IMG/VR virus record: IMGVR_UViG_2698536657_000017
Coordinates: 1-35,026 of that record
Length of the DNA stretch: 35,026 bases
Origin: a virus
Taxonomy: Duplodnaviria; Heunggongvirae; Uroviricota; Caudoviricetes
Strand: one strand, 5' to 3'
Every line of letters begins with the position of its first letter. Position 1 is the stretch's first letter. This document shows positions 13,426-21,068 of this stretch, piece after piece. A program made the position numbers and the translations under genes. The notes under the pieces were generated by a model. That model ran no database searches. It had not been told where the DNA came from and saw only the letters and a list, made by a program, of their open reading frames with translations.

Positions 13426-13503
13426 AGCCGGAGATATCCAGTAGACATTTTCCCCCTGAGCATTCAAATCAGAAAAAGTATGGTTACAGCGGAGTACAGA
13501 ATA

Positions 13504-13929
13504 ATGCGTGATATCCAACAGGTTCTGTCCCGATGGGGTGCATGGGTGGTAAATAATCATGAGAGTGTGGCATGGTCCGGCGTCGCTGCCGGATTTAAGG
13601 GAGTGATCCCATCAAAGGTTAAATCACGGCCTCAGTGTACCGATGATGATGCGCTGATTATCAGCAATTGCATGGCGCAACTGAACGTCAACAACAGCGA
13701 TTTGCATGATTTTCTGTATGATTATTATGTGTTCGGGATGACGCTTATGGGACTGGGCCGTAAGCATGAGCGCTCTGATTGCTGGGCCGGGCGGGTACTG
13801 CAAAAAGCTGAAGGTGTTATTGAGGGGATGTTGATTATGCAGGGAATAAAACTGGAAATGGACAGATACGTTGAGCGTGAACGATCAGGGGCACAGGTCA
13901 GTCAGTTTTCCGGACATACGGGAAATTGA
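13504..13929 (+). CDS. Q: Late-gene antiterminator Q, phage 82/21 (QuuD-like) type (141 aa)
   Basis: [60 protein letters not shown] matches my memory of Q82/QuuD-family proteins. I preferred this start over 13480 because GGAG lies upstream of it. Confidence 0.85.
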
Positions 13930-13953
13930 AAGCGCGGGGTTTTACTGTAGAAT
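13926..13953 (+). promoter_or_regulatory. Sigma70 promoter (TTGAAA-16-TAGAAT), most likely the hok mRNA promoter
   Basis: -35 at 13926-13931 (overlapping the Q stop codon) and -10 at 13948-13953. The predicted start at about 13961 coincides with GGTGCTTGAGG, which resembles the conserved 5' end of hok-family mRNAs. Confidence 0.55.
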
Positions 13954-14019
13954 GACTGCGGGTGCTTGAGGGTGTCTGCCTCGGGCATGCTGCCGTAAGG
14001 CAGACGGAGAAAAGCCCCA

Positions 14020-14080
14020 GTTAACATTACGCGTCCTGCAAGACGCTTAACATTAATCTGAGGCCAATTTCATGCTGAAC
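14020..14080 (-). ncRNA. sok: Sok-like antisense RNA (boundaries approximate)
   Basis: Minus-strand promoter TTGCCT-17-TAACCT (-35 at 14110-14115, -10 at 14087-14092) points into the hok leader. The transcript would be complementary to the upstream in-frame ATG (14072) region. It contains the hairpin GCGTC-N6-GACGC (14031-14046). Confidence 0.4.
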
Positions 14081-14128
14081 ACATGTAGGTTAGCCTCTTA
14101 CGTGCCGAAAGGCAAGGAGAAGCAGGCT

Positions 14129-14284
14129 ATGAAGCAGCAAAAGGCGATGTTAATCGCCCTGATCGTCATCTGTTTAACCGTCATTCTGACGGTACTGGTA
14201 GCGAGGAAAGACCTCTGCGATGTACGAATCCGAACCGGCCAGACGGAGGTCGCTGTCTTCGTAGACTACGAATCTGAGAAGTAA
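14129..14284 (+). CDS. hok: Hok/Gef-family type I toxin, HokD/RelF-like (51 aa)
   Basis: MKQQKAMLIALIVICLTVILTVLVARKDLCDVRIRTGQTEVAVFVDYESEK is near-identical in pattern to RelF/HokD as I remember it. AAGGAG RBS. The upstream leader resembles the hok mRNA fold-back elements. An in-frame upstream ATG at 14072 occupies the mok position. Confidence 0.9.
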   Translation: MKQQKAMLIALIVICLTVILTVLVARKDLCDVRIRTGQTEVAVFVDYESEK

Positions 14285-14458
14285 GAGACCTGGCGGGGGA
14301 GTAATCTCCCGCCCCCTCTGATGTGTCAGGCATCCTCAACGCACCCGTACTTTAGTTGTCATATGCTCCGCAAAATGCAGGTTGTCGTTGCAACCCGTGC
14401 GGTAATTTTTTGTGTGCGAGTGCTCAAAAAACGTTGATTTTCATAAAAGGACGATTTT

Positions 14459-16543
14459 ATGCTGCCAGACCAGCGACCAGCGACCAGCGACCGTAAATCA
14501 AGAAAGTCTGTAAAATCTGTTGAACCAGACATTGCCGACCGGGCTAACAACTGGCTCAAATCTTATGGACTTGATTACAAACTGGAGCAGGCACCACTTA
14601 ACAACGAGATCGATAACGCACTGGATGCTTATTTTTCGAAAAATGGCGGCACAGGCGGTAATCGTCCCGACGTAAAACTCCTTGTTCAGGACAAATACGG
14701 CAAGCAGTATCCCGTTCTCATCGAGTATAAAGGCTACAAGGACAGGCTTATCAGACTTGGCAGCAACGGTATTATTGAGAACAAAGATGCCAGAAAAGAA
14801 TGGAATTTTAAAAATATTAATGGATACGCGGTGAATGGCGCAGTCCATTATGCCAACGCACTTCTTCAGTTCACCAATTACCCTGATATTATTGCTATTG
14901 GTATGACCGGCTGGCGCGATGATGGTACAGGCGAACTGCATCATGAAATCGGCGTGTGGTACGTATCAAAGAATAATTTAGGAGCCGGGCAGAAGGTTGG
15001 TGAATTCACCGACTTATCGTTCCTTGCTGACAAAAATGTTGATGGATTTCTCAACAAGATAAAGCTGCTTAATCTTCCTCCCGAAGAACTGGAAAAAATC
15101 AAGGCCAGCAAAGAGGAAGAGATAGACACGCGACTTTCCCGTCTGAATAACGATATTTACCAGAATGAAAAGGGGCTTGGTGAAAGCGATCGTGTTTACC
15201 TTGTTGTGGCTACCGTTATTGCAACGTTGGGGATTCCGGGAAAGTTAGCACCGCTGGATAAAAAAGAACTGACCTCTTCAACGGAGGAGGACTTGCGTGA
15301 TGGTGATATTATTTTCAGGAAAATAAGGAATTTTTTAAGGCTGAAAGCTGTTCCTGAAACAAAAAGAGAAATGATTTTGCGCTCGTTGCAAAATACGCTG
15401 TGGACTGAAAACATTAACAAACCAGTCAACGGTGAAAGCCAGTTAAAGCGCGTGTTTGTTAAAGTTGTTGATGATCTTGGGGAGTATTACAAAATCGGAC
15501 TGACCACTGATTTTACGGGCAAACTGTTTAATGAGATGTATCGCTGGCTTGGATTTACGCAGGACAAACTCAATGACGTCGTTCTGACACCACCTTATGT
15601 TGCCACATTGCTGGCACGACTCGCCAGAGTAAACAAAGATTCCTATGTGTGGGATTTTGCTACAGGTTCTGCGGGATTGCTTGTGGCTGCAATGAATGAA
15701 ATGCTCATTGACGCCAGAGAAAATATTCACTCACCGAATGAACTACAACTTAAGGAAGCGCAAATCAAGGCTGAACAGCTTCTTGGCCTTGAGGTGTTAT
15801 CCAGTATTTATATGCTGGCCATCCTGAATATGATTTTGATGGGGGATGGTAGCTCGAATATCCTCAATAAAGACTCGCTAGCCGATTTTGACGGCAAGTA
15901 TGGATTTGGGAAAACAGGAGAAAAATTCCCTGCGGACGCATTTATTCTCAATCCTCCGTATTCAGCTAAAGGTAACGGCATGATTTTCGTGCAGAAGGCG
16001 CTGTCGATGATGGATAAAGGCTATGCTGCAGTGATTATCCAGAGTTCAGCCGGCACAGGAAAGGCTACGGAGTACAACAAAAAAATACTCAAGGAAAATA
16101 CCTTGCTGGCAAGCATCAAAATGCCTGCGGATCTGTTTATTGGTAAATCAAGCGTTCAGACGTACATTTACGTTTTTCAGGTAAAAATTCCGCATAACGC
16201 GAAACAGGCTGTTAAGTTTATCGACTTTTCCAATGACGGCTATGCTCGCTCTAATCGCAAAAAGGCAAGAAACAATCTTGTTGATGCCGATCGTGCAAAA
16301 GAGCGTTATCAGGAGGTTGTGGATCTGGTTCACTTCGGGAAAGGTTGCCTTAATATCTTTACGGAGGATGAATATTTTGAGGGAACAATCGATCCTGATA
16401 GTGGTGAGGACTGGAATCAGACCAGGCCAGTAGATGCTAGGCCAACGCTGGATGATTTCAAAAAGACGGTAGGTGATTACCTTGCATGGGAGGTCTCGCA
16501 ATTACTGAAAAAACAAGGTGAAAACAATTTTGCGGGAAAGTAA
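14459..16543 (+). CDS. Fused PD-ExK nuclease plus gamma-class N6-adenine DNA methyltransferase, BcgI-A-like RM subunit (694 aa)
   Basis: N-terminal D71-X17-E89-x-K91 (NRPDVKLLV...PVLIEYKG, nt 14666-14731). MTase motif I DFATGSAG (15653-15676) precedes motif IV NPPY (15950-15961). AAGGA RBS. It is followed by an HsdS-like gene, and no HsdR-like gene is present. Confidence 0.85.
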   Translation: MLPDQRPATSDRKSRKSVKSVEPDIADRANNWLKSYGLDYKLEQAPLNNEIDNALDAYFSKNGGTGGNRPDVKLLVQDKYGKQYPVLIEYKGYKDRLIRLGSNGIIENKDARKEWNFKNINGYAVNGAVHYANALLQFTNYPDIIAIGMTGWRDDGTGELHHEIGVWYVSKNNLGAGQKVGEFTDLSFLADKNVDGFLNKIKLLNLPPEELEKIKASKEEEIDTRLSRLNNDIYQNEKGLGESDRVYLVVATVIATLGIPGKLAPLDKKELTSSTEEDLRDGDIIFRKIRNFLRLKAVPETKREMILRSLQNTLWTENINKPVNGESQLKRVFVKVVDDLGEYYKIGLTTDFTGKLFNEMYRWLGFTQDKLNDVVLTPPYVATLLARLARVNKDSYVWDFATGSAGLLVAAMNEMLIDARENIHSPNELQLKEAQIKAEQLLGLEVLSSIYMLAILNMILMGDGSSNILNKDSLADFDGKYGFGKTGEKFPADAFILNPPYSAKGNGMIFVQKALSMMDKGYAAVIIQSSAGTGKATEYNKKILKENTLLASIKMPADLFIGKSSVQTYIYVFQVKIPHNAKQAVKFIDFSNDGYARSNRKKARNNLVDADRAKERYQEVVDLVHFGKGCLNIFTEDEYFEGTIDPDSGEDWNQTRPVDARPTLDDFKKTVGDYLAWEVSQLLKKQGENNFAGK
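14468..14492 (+). repeat. Heptanucleotide tandem repeat (GACCAGC) x3.6 inside codons 4-12 of the RM gene
   Basis: Perfect period-7 identity across 14468-14492 (gaccagc gaccagc gaccagc gacc). The unit length is not a multiple of 3. Confidence 0.9.
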
Positions 16544-16602
16544 ATTCCCCGCTCAGCGATAAATTAAGAAGCGTTGAGTGGGGAGAGTTCAGGATTGGCG
16601 AT

Positions 16603-17139
16603 TTGTTCTATGTGAGCACAGGCTCGCTTATCTCCTCAGGAAGATTAAAACCAGGCAAAATTAAACGTGTTTCAGCAAAGAGCGATCAAAACGGTATCAT
16701 CGGAGAGTTTGATACCGAGTTTATGGATGATGCAAGGCATTATGAAAATTTTATAAGCGTTAATTTTTTTGGAGATGCTTTTTATCATCCTTATTGTGCC
16801 AGCGTAGAAATGAAGGTGCATGTTCTTACATTAAAATCAAGTAAGTCCGACTTTAATGCAAAGCGCGGACTGTATGTTGCCAGTATGATTAATAAAGCTT
16901 TAAAGGGGCGTTTTAATTATGGTCAACAGTTATCGAGTTCCAAACTCAGAGATGGAGAATATTTCATCTCATTACCAGTGAAAAATAATGAAATTGACTG
17001 GTTTTTTATGGATAATTATATAGAAGAGCTGGAAGCGGCCCATATAGAAGAGCTGGAAGCTTACTTGCTGGTTAGCGGACTCGCGGACTCGCGGACTCGC
17101 GGACTCGCGGACTCGCGGACTCGCGGACTCGCGGACTGA
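16603..17139 (+). CDS. HsdS-like specificity subunit, N-terminal half (TRD1 plus central helix), terminated inside or after an 8-mer repeat tract
   Basis: The frame is open from 16522. It has the conserved S-subunit N-terminal motif VEWGEFRIGDLF, a TRD-like body, and a coiled-coil FFMDNYIEELEAAHIEELEAYL. It then reads through the repeat as GLADSRTRGLADSRTRGLAD and stops at TGA 17137. The only start codon after the motif region is TTG at 16603. Confidence 0.7.
   Translation: MFYVSTGSLISSGRLKPGKIKRVSAKSDQNGIIGEFDTEFMDDARHYENFISVNFFGDAFYHPYCASVEMKVHVLTLKSSKSDFNAKRGLYVASMINKALKGRFNYGQQLSSSKLRDGEYFISLPVKNNEIDWFFMDNYIEELEAAHIEELEAYLLVSGLADSRTRGLADSRTRGLAD
17018..17060 (+). repeat. In-frame 24-bp tandem duplication (ATATAGAAGAGCTGGAAGC core, x1.8) in the S central helix
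   Basis: Copies at 17018-17036 and 17042-17060 are identical and have a 24-nt period. They encode IEELEAAH/IEELEAYL. Confidence 0.85.
17075..17137 (+). repeat. Octanucleotide tandem repeat (GCGGACTC) x7.9 between the two halves of the S gene
   Basis: There are 7 perfect units at 17075-17130 plus 7 nt of an eighth. The unit length is not a multiple of 3. The flanking ORFs are in different frames (pos mod 3 = 1 upstream, 0 downstream). Confidence 0.97.
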
Positions 17140-17201
17140 TAAGCTATGAGCTTACACCGCAGGAATATAACGCGATTGAGCTATTAAATAGCAATAATCT
17201 T

Positions 17202-17723
17202 ATGTGGGGCACTTATAACCTCAAAAAGTTATTTGGCCCCGCAATAAGAGGTAAGCGTCTGAAAAACGCAGATCGTATTCCCGGATCCTTGCCTTTTGTT
17301 ACTGCGGGTGAAGGCAATGAAGGTATTTCTGCATTTATCAGTAATGATGTTGTTGTATTCCCTGAAAATACCATTACGATAGATATGTTTGGCTCCGCAA
17401 AATACAGAAATTATGAGTATGGTGCAGATGACCATGTGGCAGTTGTTCATACAGAATTCTTTGACAGAAATGCCGTTATTTTCATAACAGCATCAATTCA
17501 TAAGTCTTCTTGTACCGGAAAGTTCAACTACGGGAGAAATTTCTATGCAAAAGATGCCGACGAGTTAATGGTATCTTTGCCGTCAAAAGATAATAACCCT
17601 GATTATTCTTTCATGGAGACGCTAATTTTAGCAGTACATAAACTGGTCATCAAAGATGTTGTCCAGTACACTGATAAAAAGCTGGTAGCGTACAGGCAGA
17701 TTACATCTGAGAAGGTCGTTTAG
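17202..17723 (+). CDS. HsdS-like specificity subunit, C-terminal half (TRD2 plus C-terminal helix)
   Basis: MWGTYNLKKLF parallels WGEFRIGDLF of TRD1. Further parallels are MFGSAKYRNYEYG vs FFGDAFYHPYCAS, and VSLPSKDNNPDYSFMETLI vs ISLPVKNNEIDWFFMDNYI. The frame is open upstream through the repeat tract (...LISYELTPQEYNAIELLNSNNLM). Confidence 0.7.
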   Translation: MWGTYNLKKLFGPAIRGKRLKNADRIPGSLPFVTAGEGNEGISAFISNDVVVFPENTITIDMFGSAKYRNYEYGADDHVAVVHTEFFDRNAVIFITASIHKSSCTGKFNYGRNFYAKDADELMVSLPSKDNNPDYSFMETLILAVHKLVIKDVVQYTDKKLVAYRQITSEKVV

Positions 17724-17845
17724 TGCAAATCCCCACCTGACAGGGTGGGGAATGGTCAGGTTATCGTGCCCTGATGCAGAAAAACAGTTTACAATCGTAA
17801 AAATCATCATATCATGACAAAAGTGGTTACATTGCCACGCAGCCG

Positions 17846-17870
17846 AACCCGCCGATGCGCGGGTTTTTTG
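17846..17870 (+). terminator. Intrinsic terminator
   Basis: AACCCGC-cgat-GCGGGTT followed by a T6 run. Confidence 0.7.
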
Positions 17871-18050: not shown

Positions 18051-18081
18051 GCCAGCCTCCCCCAGTGGGCTGGCTTTTTTT
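18051..18081 (+). terminator. Intrinsic terminator
   Basis: GCCAGCC-tcccccagtg-GGCTGGC followed by T7. The T-run occurs only in the plus orientation. Confidence 0.65.
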
Positions 18082-18298
18082 ATCTGATGCGCTTCACATC
18101 AGGGTGACGTTCTGTTGCCGCTTCATGGAAAATGTCGCTGAGCCAGCCCGGTATCTCGTCTTCTGTCATATCGTCTGGAATGACAATATCGTATAACCGG
18201 GAGAATTTTCGTTCTGTCAGGTCTGCCCGGAAGACCAGCCAGTGATCACCTTCACGTTTGACACCAATATGTCGACCAAAGACGTTGTAGATTAGCAC
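18080..18298 (-). CDS. Hypothetical small acidic protein (72 aa, GTG start)
   Basis: AAGAGG RBS 6 nt upstream of the GTG. It is the only convincing minus-strand gene inside the rightward late region. No family recognised. Confidence 0.55.
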   Translation of the reverse strand: MLIYNVFGRHIGVKREGDHWLVFRADLTERKFSRLYDIVIPDDMTEDEIPGWLSDIFHEAATERHPDVKRIR

Positions 18299-18485
18299 TA
18301 TCGACCTCTTTCAGGAATTGTGTAACTGAGATGACAGATTCAGATTTCGTCAATAAATGCAAAATGTCAATCCTGAGATCATGGTGAGCTATCTGGCGGT
18401 TTTTTATATCTGTTTAACGGGGGATGTTACATACCTCACAATTCAGTCAGTTGAAGGTTGTCTGCCCGGATGAGAATTTGTTAGA

Positions 18486-18663
18486 AAATTTCTGCATGGT
18501 GAATCCCCCTGAGCGGAGGGGCATATCAGCGACAGGTGGTTGGTTATATCCCTTATCTGGTGCGGGTTCAGGTGCTGATACTGAACTCACCGGGAGGCAC
18601 CCGGCACCATGCAATGAACGGTACATAGCGCTACTCTTCAGCCCCTCTCCGGAGGGGCTTTTT
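18486..18663 (+). ncRNA. Candidate structured RNA / short terminated transcript, unit 1 (ends approximate)
   Basis: Promoter-like TTGAAG (18451-18456) with TGaGAATTT downstream. Closing helix TGCATGGTG (18493-18501) pairs with CACCATGCA (18605-18613). Hairpins CCCCT-N6-AGGGG and CCGGG-aggca-CCCGG. Terminator AGCCCCTC-tccg-GAGGGGCT-TTTT (18640-18663). Confidence 0.45.
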
Positions 18664-18752
18664 AATGAGGGGAAGACACTGGGCAGTGAAATGTTAAATC
18701 ACTCACAATTCAGGTAGTTGACGGTTGTCTGCTTGGCTGAGAATTTGTAAAA

Positions 18753-18939
18753 AAAATCCTGCATGGTGAATCCCCCTGTGCGGAGGGGCGACTGGTGAAT
18801 GGTATGATCTCTTTGATGATCGTAAGCGAGAATACGCGGGTTTGGTGGCACCAGGCCGAACTCACCGGGAGGCACCCGGCACCATGCAGTATACAGAGAT
18901 TAGGCATATACCAAGGCCCCTCATAGCAGGGGCCTTTTT
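18753..18939 (+). ncRNA. Candidate structured RNA / short terminated transcript, unit 2 (ends approximate)
   Basis: Promoter-like TTGACG with TGaGAATTT. Perfect 10-bp closing helix CTGCATGGTG (18759-18768) pairs with CACCATGCAG (18880-18889). It has the same two hairpins as unit 1. It has its own terminator AGGCCCCT-catagc-AGGGGCCT-TTTT (18914-18939). Confidence 0.45.
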
Positions 18940-19157
18940 ACATGCAAAAAAAGCCGCCCCGGGAAGAGCGGTTGGCAAGAAGAAAAGCAATATGAACAAT
19001 TAATTAACGATGGGAATAATACCTTAGAGTAATCACCTTGCGCAACTGTAAGGGCATATTTCATCTTTGCGGGCTGTTTTTCCGGGTGACTTCTGTGTTT
19101 CCGGAGGCCAGCCTGTACCTTCTCTGACTCAGAACATTATCCCGGCCGGGAGGATTC

Positions 19158-21068
19158 ATGGCATTTAAACACTATGACGTGGTCAGGGCGGCGTCGCCGT
19201 CAGACCTTGCGGAACGAATAACTCAAAAACTGAAGGAAGGGTGGCAGCCTTATGGTAGTGCGCTGATTTCGACAGCTGGTTATGGTGCGGAGTTCATCCA
19301 GCCAGTTGTGAGTGAGGGGAGCATCTCATCACCAGAGGAGCCAGGCAACCGTCCGACGACCTCAGCGCCTTCTGTTGCGCCAGAATATTACTATGTGATC
19401 GCGCTTGCTGGTCAGTCCAATGGTATGTCATACGGTGAGGGACTGCCATTACCGGATACATTCGACAGCCCTGATCCACGTATTAAACAGTTAGCGCGTC
19501 GCAGTACGGTGACACCGGGAGGTGCTGCATGTATCTATAACGATATTATCCCGGCAGATCACTGTCTCCATGATGTGGAGGATATGACAGGGCTTAATCA
19601 TCCCAAAGCGGATTTATCGAAAGGTCAGTACGGCTGTGTGGGACAGGGGCTGCATATCGCCAAAAAGCTTCTGCCATTTATACCGGCGAATGCGGGCATT
19701 CTTCTTGTTCCGTGCTGCCGTGGTGGTTCAGCTTTCACCACCGGAACCGATGGCACATACAGTGACACTACTGGCGCCTCAGAGAGTTCCACCCGCTGGG
19801 GGGTGGGCAGGCCGCTGTATAAGGACCTCATTGGTCGTACAAAAGCCGCGCTGGCGAAGAATCCGAAAAATGTGCTGCTTGCCGTGGTATGGATGCAAGG
19901 GGAATTTGATTTTAACGGAACGCCAGCGAATCATGCAGCCCGTTTTACAGAAGTGGTGGATCAATACCGTGCGGACCTTGCAGATATGGCGGGGCAGTGT
20001 GTGGGTGGCTCAGCTGACAGTGTTCCCTGGATTTGTGGAGACACAACATATTTCTGGAAGCAGAAGAACGAAACGGCGTACCAGACGGTGTACGGTAGTT
20101 ACAAAAATAAAACGGAAAAGAATATCCATTTCGTGCCGTTCATGACCGATGAGAACGGGGTGAATGTGCCGACGAACAAACCGGAAGAAGACCCGGATAT
20201 TCCGGATATCGGGTATTACGGTTCAAAATGGCGAACGGACAGAAGCACCTGGACATCTCAGGACAGGGCCAGTCATTTCAGTTCATGGGCTCGCCGTGGG
20301 ATTATTTCCGACCGTCTGGCAACGGCGATTCTGAGCTGCGCGGGTAAGTCTTCTGCGTTTGTTAATGGTACTGCCGGGGTGGTTGTTCCAGACAGACCGG
20401 TTACCACCTCAGAGTCTGTAATTTTTTACGATGCCAAAAAAGCTTCAGACAATCAGCTGAAACCTTATGGCTGGGACGGTATGGATGGCAGACGCACACT
20501 GGTTGATGACAGCGGCAATAAAGCTCTGCGAATTGAGAAAAATAACAGCGCGAAATCCTGGTCAATGTACTGTGATATTGCTGCAGACAAGGCAAAACTT
20601 TTACTGGAAAAAGGCGGGGAAATTGCTGTCCGGTTTAAAATCCCCGAAAACGTCAATCTTGAGACAACCAGAAACAAGTATGCCTTTGGTTTGTACTGGC
20701 GAATAGCGGAATGGCCGGGTGAGGGTGGTGAAGGCTATCTGAGTTCTTTCTTTGTCCAGACAGATAAAGCCAGTATTGATGTTGCATACCATCATACAGT
20801 TAATCAACAAAAAGAACTTGGCACGTTTGGCGCATTCGACCATGACTGGCATACGCTTGCATTTAAATTTAAGGGCAGTAACAGCATTAATGTTACTCCG
20901 GTGCTTGATGGTGTGGATGGACAGGCGTTTGACCTGGTGAAATGGGCCAATACTGCTAATGGACTCAACAGGTTTGTCATTACGGATATTACAGGTAGTG
21001 CAGAAACCTACCCTGTACTTATTGATACGGTGGAAGTTAAAGCAAACAAAGCTGGAGCAGCCGCATAA
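19158..21068 (+). CDS. nanS-p: Prophage sialate O-acetylesterase NanS-p type (DUF1737 N-terminus plus SASA/DUF303 esterase plus C-terminal domain), 636 aa
   Basis: N-terminal MAFKHYDVVRAASPSDLAERITQKLKEGWQPYGS (DUF1737-like). Esterase block YYYVIALAGQSNGMSYGEG with the GQSN motif. The size and the position downstream of the Q/stx slot match NanS-p genes of Stx phages, from memory. Confidence 0.85.
   Translation: MAFKHYDVVRAASPSDLAERITQKLKEGWQPYGSALISTAGYGAEFIQPVVSEGSISSPEEPGNRPTTSAPSVAPEYYYVIALAGQSNGMSYGEGLPLPDTFDSPDPRIKQLARRSTVTPGGAACIYNDIIPADHCLHDVEDMTGLNHPKADLSKGQYGCVGQGLHIAKKLLPFIPANAGILLVPCCRGGSAFTTGTDGTYSDTTGASESSTRWGVGRPLYKDLIGRTKAALAKNPKNVLLAVVWMQGEFDFNGTPANHAARFTEVVDQYRADLADMAGQCVGGSADSVPWICGDTTYFWKQKNETAYQTVYGSYKNKTEKNIHFVPFMTDENGVNVPTNKPEEDPDIPDIGYYGSKWRTDRSTWTSQDRASHFSSWARRGIISDRLATAILSCAGKSSAFVNGTAGVVVPDRPVTTSESVIFYDAKKASDNQLKPYGWDGMDGRRTLVDDSGNKALRIEKNNSAKSWSMYCDIAADKAKLLLEKGGEIAVRFKIPENVNLETTRNKYAFGLYWRIAEWPGEGGEGYLSSFFVQTDKASIDVAYHHTVNQQKELGTFGAFDHDWHTLAFKFKGSNSINVTPVLDGVDGQAFDLVKWANTANGLNRFVITDITGSAETYPVLIDTVEVKANKAGAAA

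Follow-up and report, generated by a model that had tools for sequence, protein, structure and literature searches.

The window analysed here is a stretch of 35,026 nt from a virus of the class Caudoviricetes (IMG/VR record IMGVR_UViG_2698536657_000017, positions 1 to 35,026), in which a restriction-modification (RM) module lies downstream of the gene of the antiterminator Q. The module is composed of gene A, which encodes a protein with a nuclease part and a methyltransferase part, and of a specificity (S) reading frame with two target-recognition domains (TRDs). In the original prediction it was described as a BcgI-like module of Type IIB architecture. We agree with that assignment, and we propose in addition that S is probably made as a frameshift fusion to A and that two repeat tracts govern the expression and the extent of the enzyme. 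The original prediction did not mention the 7-nt tract at the start of gene A, the 8-nt tract as the cause of the split in S, or the missing start codon of S. The features of the module were as follows.

14459..16543, plus strand: gene A, an open reading frame (ORF) for a 694-aa restriction endonuclease and N6-adenine methyltransferase of the BcgI A / BsaXI RM type, in frame (ON) in the window
14468..14492, plus strand: heptanucleotide tract (GACCAGC)3.6 beginning 9 nt after the ATG (Tandem Repeats Finder, 100% matches), putative ON/OFF frame switch for A
14666..14731, plus strand: PD-ExK motif P70-D71...E89-x-K91, within a nuclease domain of residues about 17-190 (nt 14507-15028)
15038..15496, plus strand: all-helical connector, residues about 194-346 (secondary structure of the AlphaFold2 model, helices H194-H346)
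15505..16525, plus strand: gamma-class N6-adenine methyltransferase and C-terminal helix (residues 664-689), with DFATGSAG at 15653-15676 and NPPY at 15950-15961
16534..16540, plus strand: slippery heptamer G_GGA_AAG in the zero frame of A (codons G693 and K694), read from the sequence and abutting the TAA stop at 16541-16543
16540..17139, plus strand: -1 frame continuation with linker, TRD1, central conserved helix and repeat peptide, 199 codons, stop TGA at 17137-17139
16546..16584, plus strand: 13-bp stem-loop, 16546-16558 pairing with 16572-16584, 5 nt past the heptamer, predicted frameshift stimulator
17020..17067, plus strand: two 24-nt units (IEELEAAH/IEELEAYL) of the central conserved helix, read from the sequence; three units in relatives L002 and L008
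17075..17137, plus strand: octanucleotide tract (GCGGACTC)7.9 between the central helix and TRD2 (Tandem Repeats Finder, 100% matches)
17139..17723, plus strand: TRD2 and distal conserved helix, with an ORF from the ATG at 17202 that lacks a Shine-Dalgarno sequence; predicted to be silent in the present phase

The gene A protein matched the PADLOC profile REase_MTase_IIG over nearly its whole length (E = 7e-234, residues 17-686 against positions 3-717 of 721) and a second PADLOC IIG profile of 637 positions (E = 7e-45). As predicted from the sequence, its C-terminal part is a gamma-class N6-adenine methyltransferase with the motifs DFATGSAG (D399-G406) and NPPY (residues 498-501), and Pfam N6_Mtase was matched with E = 5e-21. 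The AlphaFold2 model of the whole protein had a predicted local distance difference test score (pLDDT) of 84. The best full-length Foldseek match of the model was the BsaXI RM subunit 8w2p_A (E = 2e-14, 675 aligned columns). A single-sequence search of Protein Data Bank (PDB) sequences gave no match, and a profile search matched the methyltransferase domain only.

The predicted PD-ExK motif in the N-terminal part was also found, and the confident model of this domain has a nuclease fold which matches restriction nucleases. A search with residues 1-345 against 1.8 billion representative proteins yielded 566 relatives. In alignments of 26 and 41 relatives (25-65% identity), D71 was invariant or nearly so, and E22, P70, E89 and K91 were at least 90% conserved. 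The possibility that the N-terminal half is a non-catalytic HsdM-like domain was thus answered in the negative. About 270 residues linking nuclease and methyltransferase had been called not recognisable; this no longer holds, as they correspond to the helical connector of Type IIB RM subunits in the AlphaFold2 model. A 'multi-helical connector' is reported for such subunits in the BsaXI structure paper, where a C-terminal helix bundling with the S helices is also described (PMC11997821).

A classical Type I system (HsdM plus HsdS), with HsdR lost or encoded elsewhere, has in its favour the RefSeq names 'HsdM family' and 'restriction endonuclease subunit S' and the resemblance of the methyltransferase domain to HsdM structures. 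However, A scored 35.9 bits against the NCBIfam hsdM equivalog TIGR00497, whose cut-off is 242.75, and is not a member of that family; the RefSeq label is therefore a domain-level name only. The conserved N-terminal nuclease domain and the full-length match to the IIG profile speak against Type I as well. Between Q and the nanS-p-type gene of the window there was no helicase or translocase gene. Linked HsdR genes were likewise absent from the loci examined in E. coli (11), Providencia (3), Neisseria (3) and Salmonella (1), and among 80 additional loci of many phyla none had a flanking ORF of 550 aa or more with both Walker A and DExH motifs. The absence of an HsdR-type gene, noted at first for the window, therefore extends to every related locus examined (about 100 loci), and a Type I identity is extremely improbable. 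The results support the BcgI arrangement of the original prediction, and we assign the module to the BcgI-like Type IIB systems with high confidence; its activity and double-sided cutting are presumed. The BcgI-like nature is already implicit in databases, and a homolog in one phage record is annotated as 'BcgI alpha chain-like'.

Gene A ends with the codons GCG GGA AAG TAA. The S frame opens at 16522 in the -1 frame relative to A and overlaps the final 22 nt of A. In the window, no ATG, GTG or TTG precedes position 16603 in the S frame, and the TTG at 16603 is inside the conserved start of TRD1. The stem-loop behind the heptamer had a folding energy of -23.3 kcal/mol in RNAfold (z = -5.6), and none of 200 shuffled sequences was as stable.

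The junction was then compared among 80 loci from other species together with the enterobacterial and Neisseria loci. Of the 91 junctions scanned, 87 had S in the -1 frame; the four exceptions were in-frame fusions of natural origin or loci that are truncated or interrupted by an IS. In 73/75 distinct junctions the last 2-3 codons of A contained a correctly framed X_XXY_YYZ heptamer. The junction Gly codon was GGA in 71/71 cases, compared with 29% of the Gly codons in the same genes, and the codon before it ended in G, again in 71/71. Where Leu occurred at the junction, its codon was only CTG or TTG (57/57; background 31%). These choices are constraints at the nucleotide level, which selection on the protein cannot explain. 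An invariant Trp was always found exactly 15 codons past the heptamer. The -1 frame peptide was conserved from the slip site on, as GK[IVM][DN][AST][SP]LN.KL..V[EK]WGE, with second codon positions the most constrained.

The hairpin was also retained. In 68 aligned junctions 96.6% of the cells were paired, compared with 33-49% when the partner columns were slid. Four pairs changed on both sides, and the covariation exceeded that of 500 out of 500 shuffles. For example, a Leu codon (CUU, CUC or CUG) faced AAG, GAG or CAG, with the covarying pair being UA in 33 cases, CG in 16, UG in 15 and GC in 2. Three divergent junction alleles from E. coli and Salmonella retained the heptamer, as G_GGA_AAG or A_AAA_AAG, and the stem with compensating changes; in two of them A_AAA_AAG lay 3 nt before the stop and was followed by a CUCCCG.../...CGGGAG stem.

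G_GGA_AAG is the heptamer of lambda G/GT, and A_AAA_AAG is that of dnaX. A published list counts the two among the highly shift-prone heptamers of E. coli (PMC5009743). The predicted trans-frame product of the window would have 694 + 199 = 893 aa and would align collinearly with the A-TRD fusions of 860-960 aa that occur naturally in frame in the same family and have the same LEAYL..GL end motif. From these sequence features, programmed -1 frameshifting that makes an A-S fusion appears likely.

Two other readings of the junction were rejected or judged unlikely. GGGA had the wrong spacing for a Shine-Dalgarno sequence with any candidate start (2-3 nt or about 24 nt). Transcriptional slippage at GGGAAAG is unlikely with only three or four A residues, a verdict that is not extended to the A7 run of the A_AAA_AAG alleles.

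Alternatively, S may be a separate polypeptide, started at a non-canonical or internal codon or by termination and reinitiation at the stop of A, with the heptamer and hairpin serving coupling or mRNA stability. S is a subunit of its own in the classical enzymes BcgI and BsaXI (PMC3592470, PMC11997821), and in EcoKI a 1-nt overlap couples the translation of hsdM and hsdS (PMC3510504). An in-frame ATG able to start S independently was present at 15 of the 73 junctions, as an ATGA overlap with a TGA stop in 5 and at codon 9 or 10 in 10 (Neisseria included). However, in 43 of the 73 the stretch from the heptamer to the invariant Trp was free of ATG, GTG and TTG, and the codon overlapping the stop there was ATA or GTA. 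Coupling also leaves unexplained the fixed GGA codon, the G-ending codon before it, and the hairpin at the canonical spacing of 5-6 nt. A start at the TTG of the window would cost 22 positions of Pfam Methylase_S, which was matched at positions 2-167 when translation began at 16534 and at 24-167 for the TTG ORF. We consider a separate S unlikely. The HsdS-like gene with two target-recognition halves in the original prediction stands as to the halves, both of which match specificity profiles; S is probably not an independent gene.

The two S-like ORFs of the window, 16603-17139 (WGEFRIGDLF, frame open from 16522) and 17202-17723 (WGTYNLKKLF), both matched Pfam Methylase_S and PADLOC 'Type II specificity subunit' profiles; the TRD2 half matched Specificity_II with E = 6e-15 at positions 181-332 of 341. 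S is split because the perfect 8-nt tandem repeat, with its 7.9 copies, puts TRD2 out of frame. Removal of one unit in silico fused the two halves. Among eight loci the octanucleotide tract had 4.9, 6.9, 7.9 (window), 8.9, 16.9 or 23.9 copies, and it was absent in loci with other S alleles. An intact S (375-381 aa) was found only in two loci, L008 and L009, with 6.9 copies (tract length mod 3 = 1). Both non-fusion frames met a stop at most 4 codons past the tract. Three OkiPb strains had 23.9, 6.9 and 8.9 copies. In strain 2015C-3121 (L007, 5442-6139) the insertion sequence IS1A interrupted the S frame close to its 5' end and separated S from the frameshift site.

The heptanucleotide tract of gene A in the window is the shortest known. 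In the window and eleven related loci it had 3.6 (window), 16.6, 23.6, 30.6, 31, 64, 80.6, 83, 87.6 or 94.4 copies. A DNA search spanning the tract, done without hok since hok homologs otherwise swamp the query, found it in 28 complete E. coli genomes with an inferred 16.6 to about 99 copies. Copy number differed among sister isolates (G1/2 about 93, G6/7 about 83, G8 about 99), between UCPROB-001 and -002 (76 and 83) and among three O111:H8 strains (56, 83 and 58). Alleles in IMG/VR contigs had 9 to 102 copies; many contigs broke at the tract, and a Salmonella contig started within it. (GACCAGC)n is translated to (DQRPATS)n in all frames, and a change in copy number therefore alters only the reading frame of the gene body that follows. 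In 10/10 relatives examined, a second ATG lay 8 nt before the main start (GGATGATTTTATG), where it brings another repeat frame into register; in the window it is replaced by ACG (14451-14453). Among 11 loci, A was in frame with the main ATG in 4 (window included), with the second ATG in 3 and with neither in 4. These ON/OFF calls in relatives are provisional, since copy numbers of long repeats in assemblies may be inaccurate.

Two side observations concern this tract. Opposite long (GACCAGC)n tracts RefSeq carries a 'YXWGXW repeat-containing protein' (L005, 3158-4185; L007, 2658-3290; L008, 2658-3272), which looks like an annotation artefact of the repeat. In an unrelated IMG/VR locus (L103, L108, L116), (CGACCAG)n and then (ACCAGC)n stood directly 3' of a start codon.

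Both tracts are perfect repeats inside coding sequence with a unit that is not a multiple of 3; copy number varied between close strains, and both frame states were seen. Repeat-driven variation at this locus is thus very likely. The tract of the window is probably too short for frequent switching.

It could also be supposed that the module is decaying in the window, the split S being a pseudogene and the 3.6-copy tract a remnant. The shortest heptanucleotide tract seen, the change of the alternative ATG to ACG, the split itself and the insertion of IS1 into S of one relative fit this view. Against it, A is open over its full length and has all its motifs, both tracts are perfect, split and intact S differ by whole repeat units only, and the end of the truncated product coincides with that of natural A-TRD fusions. 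Decay is therefore very unlikely. A different view sees in the module chiefly an epigenetic switch, with a methyltransferase under phase variation ('phasevarion'), or else a factor for prophage addiction or exclusion, with little or no restriction in vivo. Repeat-switched methyltransferases such as the Campylobacter Type IIG enzyme and gonococcal NgoAV are tied to expression changes (PMC4889913, PMC9577141), and many relatives of gene A are out of frame. The nuclease catalytic residues, however, are intact here and conserved throughout the family, and the confident nuclease-domain model matches restriction nucleases. We judge this role decidedly unlikely, and it is compatible with the rest of the explanation that we prefer, namely frameshift fusion combined with repeat switching.

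According to that explanation, slippage in (GACCAGC)n would move A in and out of frame and so turn nuclease and methylase on and off together. Most ribosomes would stop at the TAA and release free A. A fraction would slip by -1 on G_GGA_AAG, aided by the adjacent stop codon and the 13-bp hairpin, and would make the A-S fusion. Free A and the fusion might then form an assembly of two enzymes and one S, by analogy with BcgI and BsaXI (PMC3592470, PMC11997821); BcgI has the stoichiometry A2B (PMC3592470). An engineered EcoKI M-S fusion was functional in vivo and needed extra free methylase subunit (Roberts et al. 2012, PMC3510504), which makes such an assembly of A with A-S plausible.

Specificity would come from the HsdS-like layout of TRD1, helix, TRD2 and helix, and the octanucleotide tract would set the extent of S, either full-length or truncated after TRD1 and its helix. 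A full-length S with two different TRDs would be expected to recognise an asymmetric bipartite target, and the truncated form with one TRD could pair with itself and recognise a symmetric one. With n = 7.9, the fusion predicted for the window has TRD1 only. If the tract lost one 8-mer unit or gained two, the fusion would include TRD2 as well and would have a different target. The state of the window predicted from its sequence is thus enzyme ON, a frameshift product with TRD1 only, and TRD2 silent. What is said of the frameshift rate, target sequences and switching rates of the module is what we infer.

Several points weigh against this explanation. Frameshifting and enzyme activity are predictions from sequence. 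In the lineages that have their own ATG for S, the hairpin and heptamer could be relics or serve translational coupling. The covariation of the hairpin is hard to separate from coding constraints, since conserved residues are encoded in each of its arms. Long repeats may be miscounted in assemblies, which makes individual frame calls in relatives uncertain. With its 3.6 copies and the ACG in place of the alternative ATG, the copy in the window may be fixed rather than switching. A switch to a new specificity could cause self-restriction, and the explanation does not account for how this would be tolerated. On balance we hold the overall explanation to be probable, a judgement set by its weakest component.

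The surroundings of the module in the window were as follows.

13480..13929, plus strand: Q antiterminator upstream of the RM module (Pfam PF06530, E = 2.5e-45)
13926..13953, plus strand: PR'-like sigma-70 promoter match, TTGAAA-16-TAGAAT (consensus scan, 10/12 positions; pattern match only)
13960..14284, plus strand: hok/sok toxin-antitoxin module (Rfam sok RF01794, 108 bits, 13960-14134; Hok PF01848, E = 1.3e-20, 14129-14284)
17845..17866, plus strand: terminator-like hairpin 3' of S (consensus scan only)
19158-21068, downstream of the module: nanS-p-type esterase (SASA/DUF1737/DUF6645)

The placement of the module between Q and nanS-p was thus borne out. The original prediction had also located it in the slot that carries stx in Shiga toxin (Stx) phages. 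This needs correction, as in related Stx phages the module lies upstream of tRNAs and stx2 and does not replace stx. In E. coli 04-00955 and OkiPb01714 the order was Q, hok, A, S, (tRNAs), stx2b or stx2a/c, and nanS-p. A tRNA scan found no tRNA genes in the window, so the tRNA-stx arrangement of the relatives is absent here. OkiPb01714 (NZ_AP042687.1, L010; second place 2234409-2235092) had the module twice, in different prophages, with one copy beside stx2. In related loci, tRNA-Ile/Arg/Arg and a remnant site-specific DNA methyltransferase gene were located between S and stx2 or nanS-p.

A complete hok/sok sits between the Q gene with its PR'-like promoter and the RM module, and hok was annotated as frameshifted in several relatives. 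No promoter specific to gene A was found by consensus scan, and no terminator ahead of it by pattern scan. Transcription of the module may be Q-dependent, or constitutive, to judge from promoter and terminator evidence that consists of pattern matches only. Between S and the nanS-p-like gene were two tandem copies of the small RNA STnc100 (Rfam RF02076, 153 and 200 bits; 18465-18670 and 18732-18945), which coincide with direct repeats 267-275 nt apart. A small ORF at 18080-18298 on the minus strand matched DUF7661 (E = 1e-28), and related loci hold an IraM anti-adapter gene at that place.

The module was present in about 30 of 5426 complete E. coli genomes. In Providencia it was located between antiterminator and holin, and in Salmonella it adjoined holin and lysozyme genes; in Neisseria it was chromosomal and without the 5' repeat tract. 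The module is late-operon cargo in several enterobacterial phages, the window being a lambdoid prophage. The A protein was about 70-74% identical across very distant phyla (L017-L096: Clostridia, Bacteroidota, Campylobacterota, Patescibacteria, Proteobacteria), which suggests, at the level of sequence identity, frequent horizontal transfer of the enzyme family.

A more general proposition, which in our view could equally prove right or wrong, is that S in this widespread Type IIB family, whose members range from Clostridia and Bacteroidota to Neisseria and the phages of enterobacteria, would be made only as a frameshift fusion, with the frameshift rate setting the ratio of enzyme to S. In lambdoid and Stx prophages of E. 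coli and Salmonella, the 8-mer would then toggle between a one-TRD (symmetric) and a two-TRD (asymmetric) form, and the 7-mer, with up to about 100 copies, would be the on/off switch. Where the module lies between Q and stx2, tract length and any self-restriction that follows a specificity switch could influence late transcription or prophage induction.

If this is true, RM enzymes would join the few cellular genes of bacteria in which programmed -1 frameshifting is used, and the stoichiometry of a complex of two enzymes and one S would follow from a simple rule. The inconsistent, truncated or non-canonical S starts given by annotation pipelines in this family would be explained, as would the 'YXWGXW repeat protein' invented on the strand opposite long tracts. 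The locus itself stands out in E. coli as a clear contingency locus driven by repeats; it is carried by Shiga-toxin and related prophages and in some strains lies immediately ahead of stx2. Clones could come to differ through it in methylome, in phage resistance and possibly in the behaviour of the toxin phage, and its two tracts are highly discriminating markers for strain typing. In the searchable literature, including a 2016 recoding review and the GeneTack survey, neither the frameshift cassette nor these repeat tracts were found described, with REBASE and paywalled papers outside the scope of the search; the repeat units searched as words gave unrelated papers only.

Among known systems, BcgI (A 637 aa plus B 341 aa, A2B) resembles the module in having an N-terminal PD-ExK nuclease and a gamma-class adenine methyltransferase in one chain, together with an HsdS-like module with two TRDs and no translocase, and the proteins of the window match profiles of 637 and 341 positions. 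The S of BcgI is a separately initiated gene, whereas that of the window lacks a start codon and follows the frameshift cassette. To our knowledge, BcgI has no repeat tracts.

BsaXI, a Type IIB enzyme of the form (RM)2S with cryo-electron microscopy structures 8w0p and 8w2p, was the best full-length structural match and has the same order of nuclease, helical connector and methyltransferase (PMC11997821). In contrast to the window protein, its RM subunit has 916 aa with an extra 'knob' and 'paddle', and the identity between the two is only about 16%. In the grouping of the same paper (PMC11997821), A belongs to the shorter group with a single C-terminal helix bundling with the S helices. The single-chain restriction-modification-specificity enzymes (Type IIB, AloI/CjeI/TstI type) are comparable to the predicted 893-aa product in so far as this is collinear with the natural A-TRD fusions of the family. 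The difference is that here the fusion would arise by recoding in a fraction of translation events, beside unfused A.

The frameshift sites of lambda G/GT and E. coli dnaX are signals of the same class as the one predicted here, and both give two products in a set ratio from one mRNA, as we predict for A and A-S; dnaX also has a downstream hairpin. The module differs in that the slip site is directly at the stop codon and the context is an RM enzyme, a context not found in the 2016 recoding review or the GeneTack survey.

In C. jejuni Type IIG Cj0031, gonococcal NgoAV hsdS and Type III mod, simple repeats within genes likewise switch expression or truncate S and alter specificity (PMC4889913, PMC9577141, PMC5909438). 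Unlike in those systems, the units here are 7 and 8 nt long and not homopolymers or tetramers or pentamers, the tracts reach about 100 copies (about 700 bp), two independent tracts occur in one system, and the hosts are E. coli and Salmonella with their lambdoid and Stx prophages. The engineered EcoKI M-S fusion follows the same assembly logic as that proposed for the module; it differs in being artificial and in belonging to a Type I, HsdR-dependent system.

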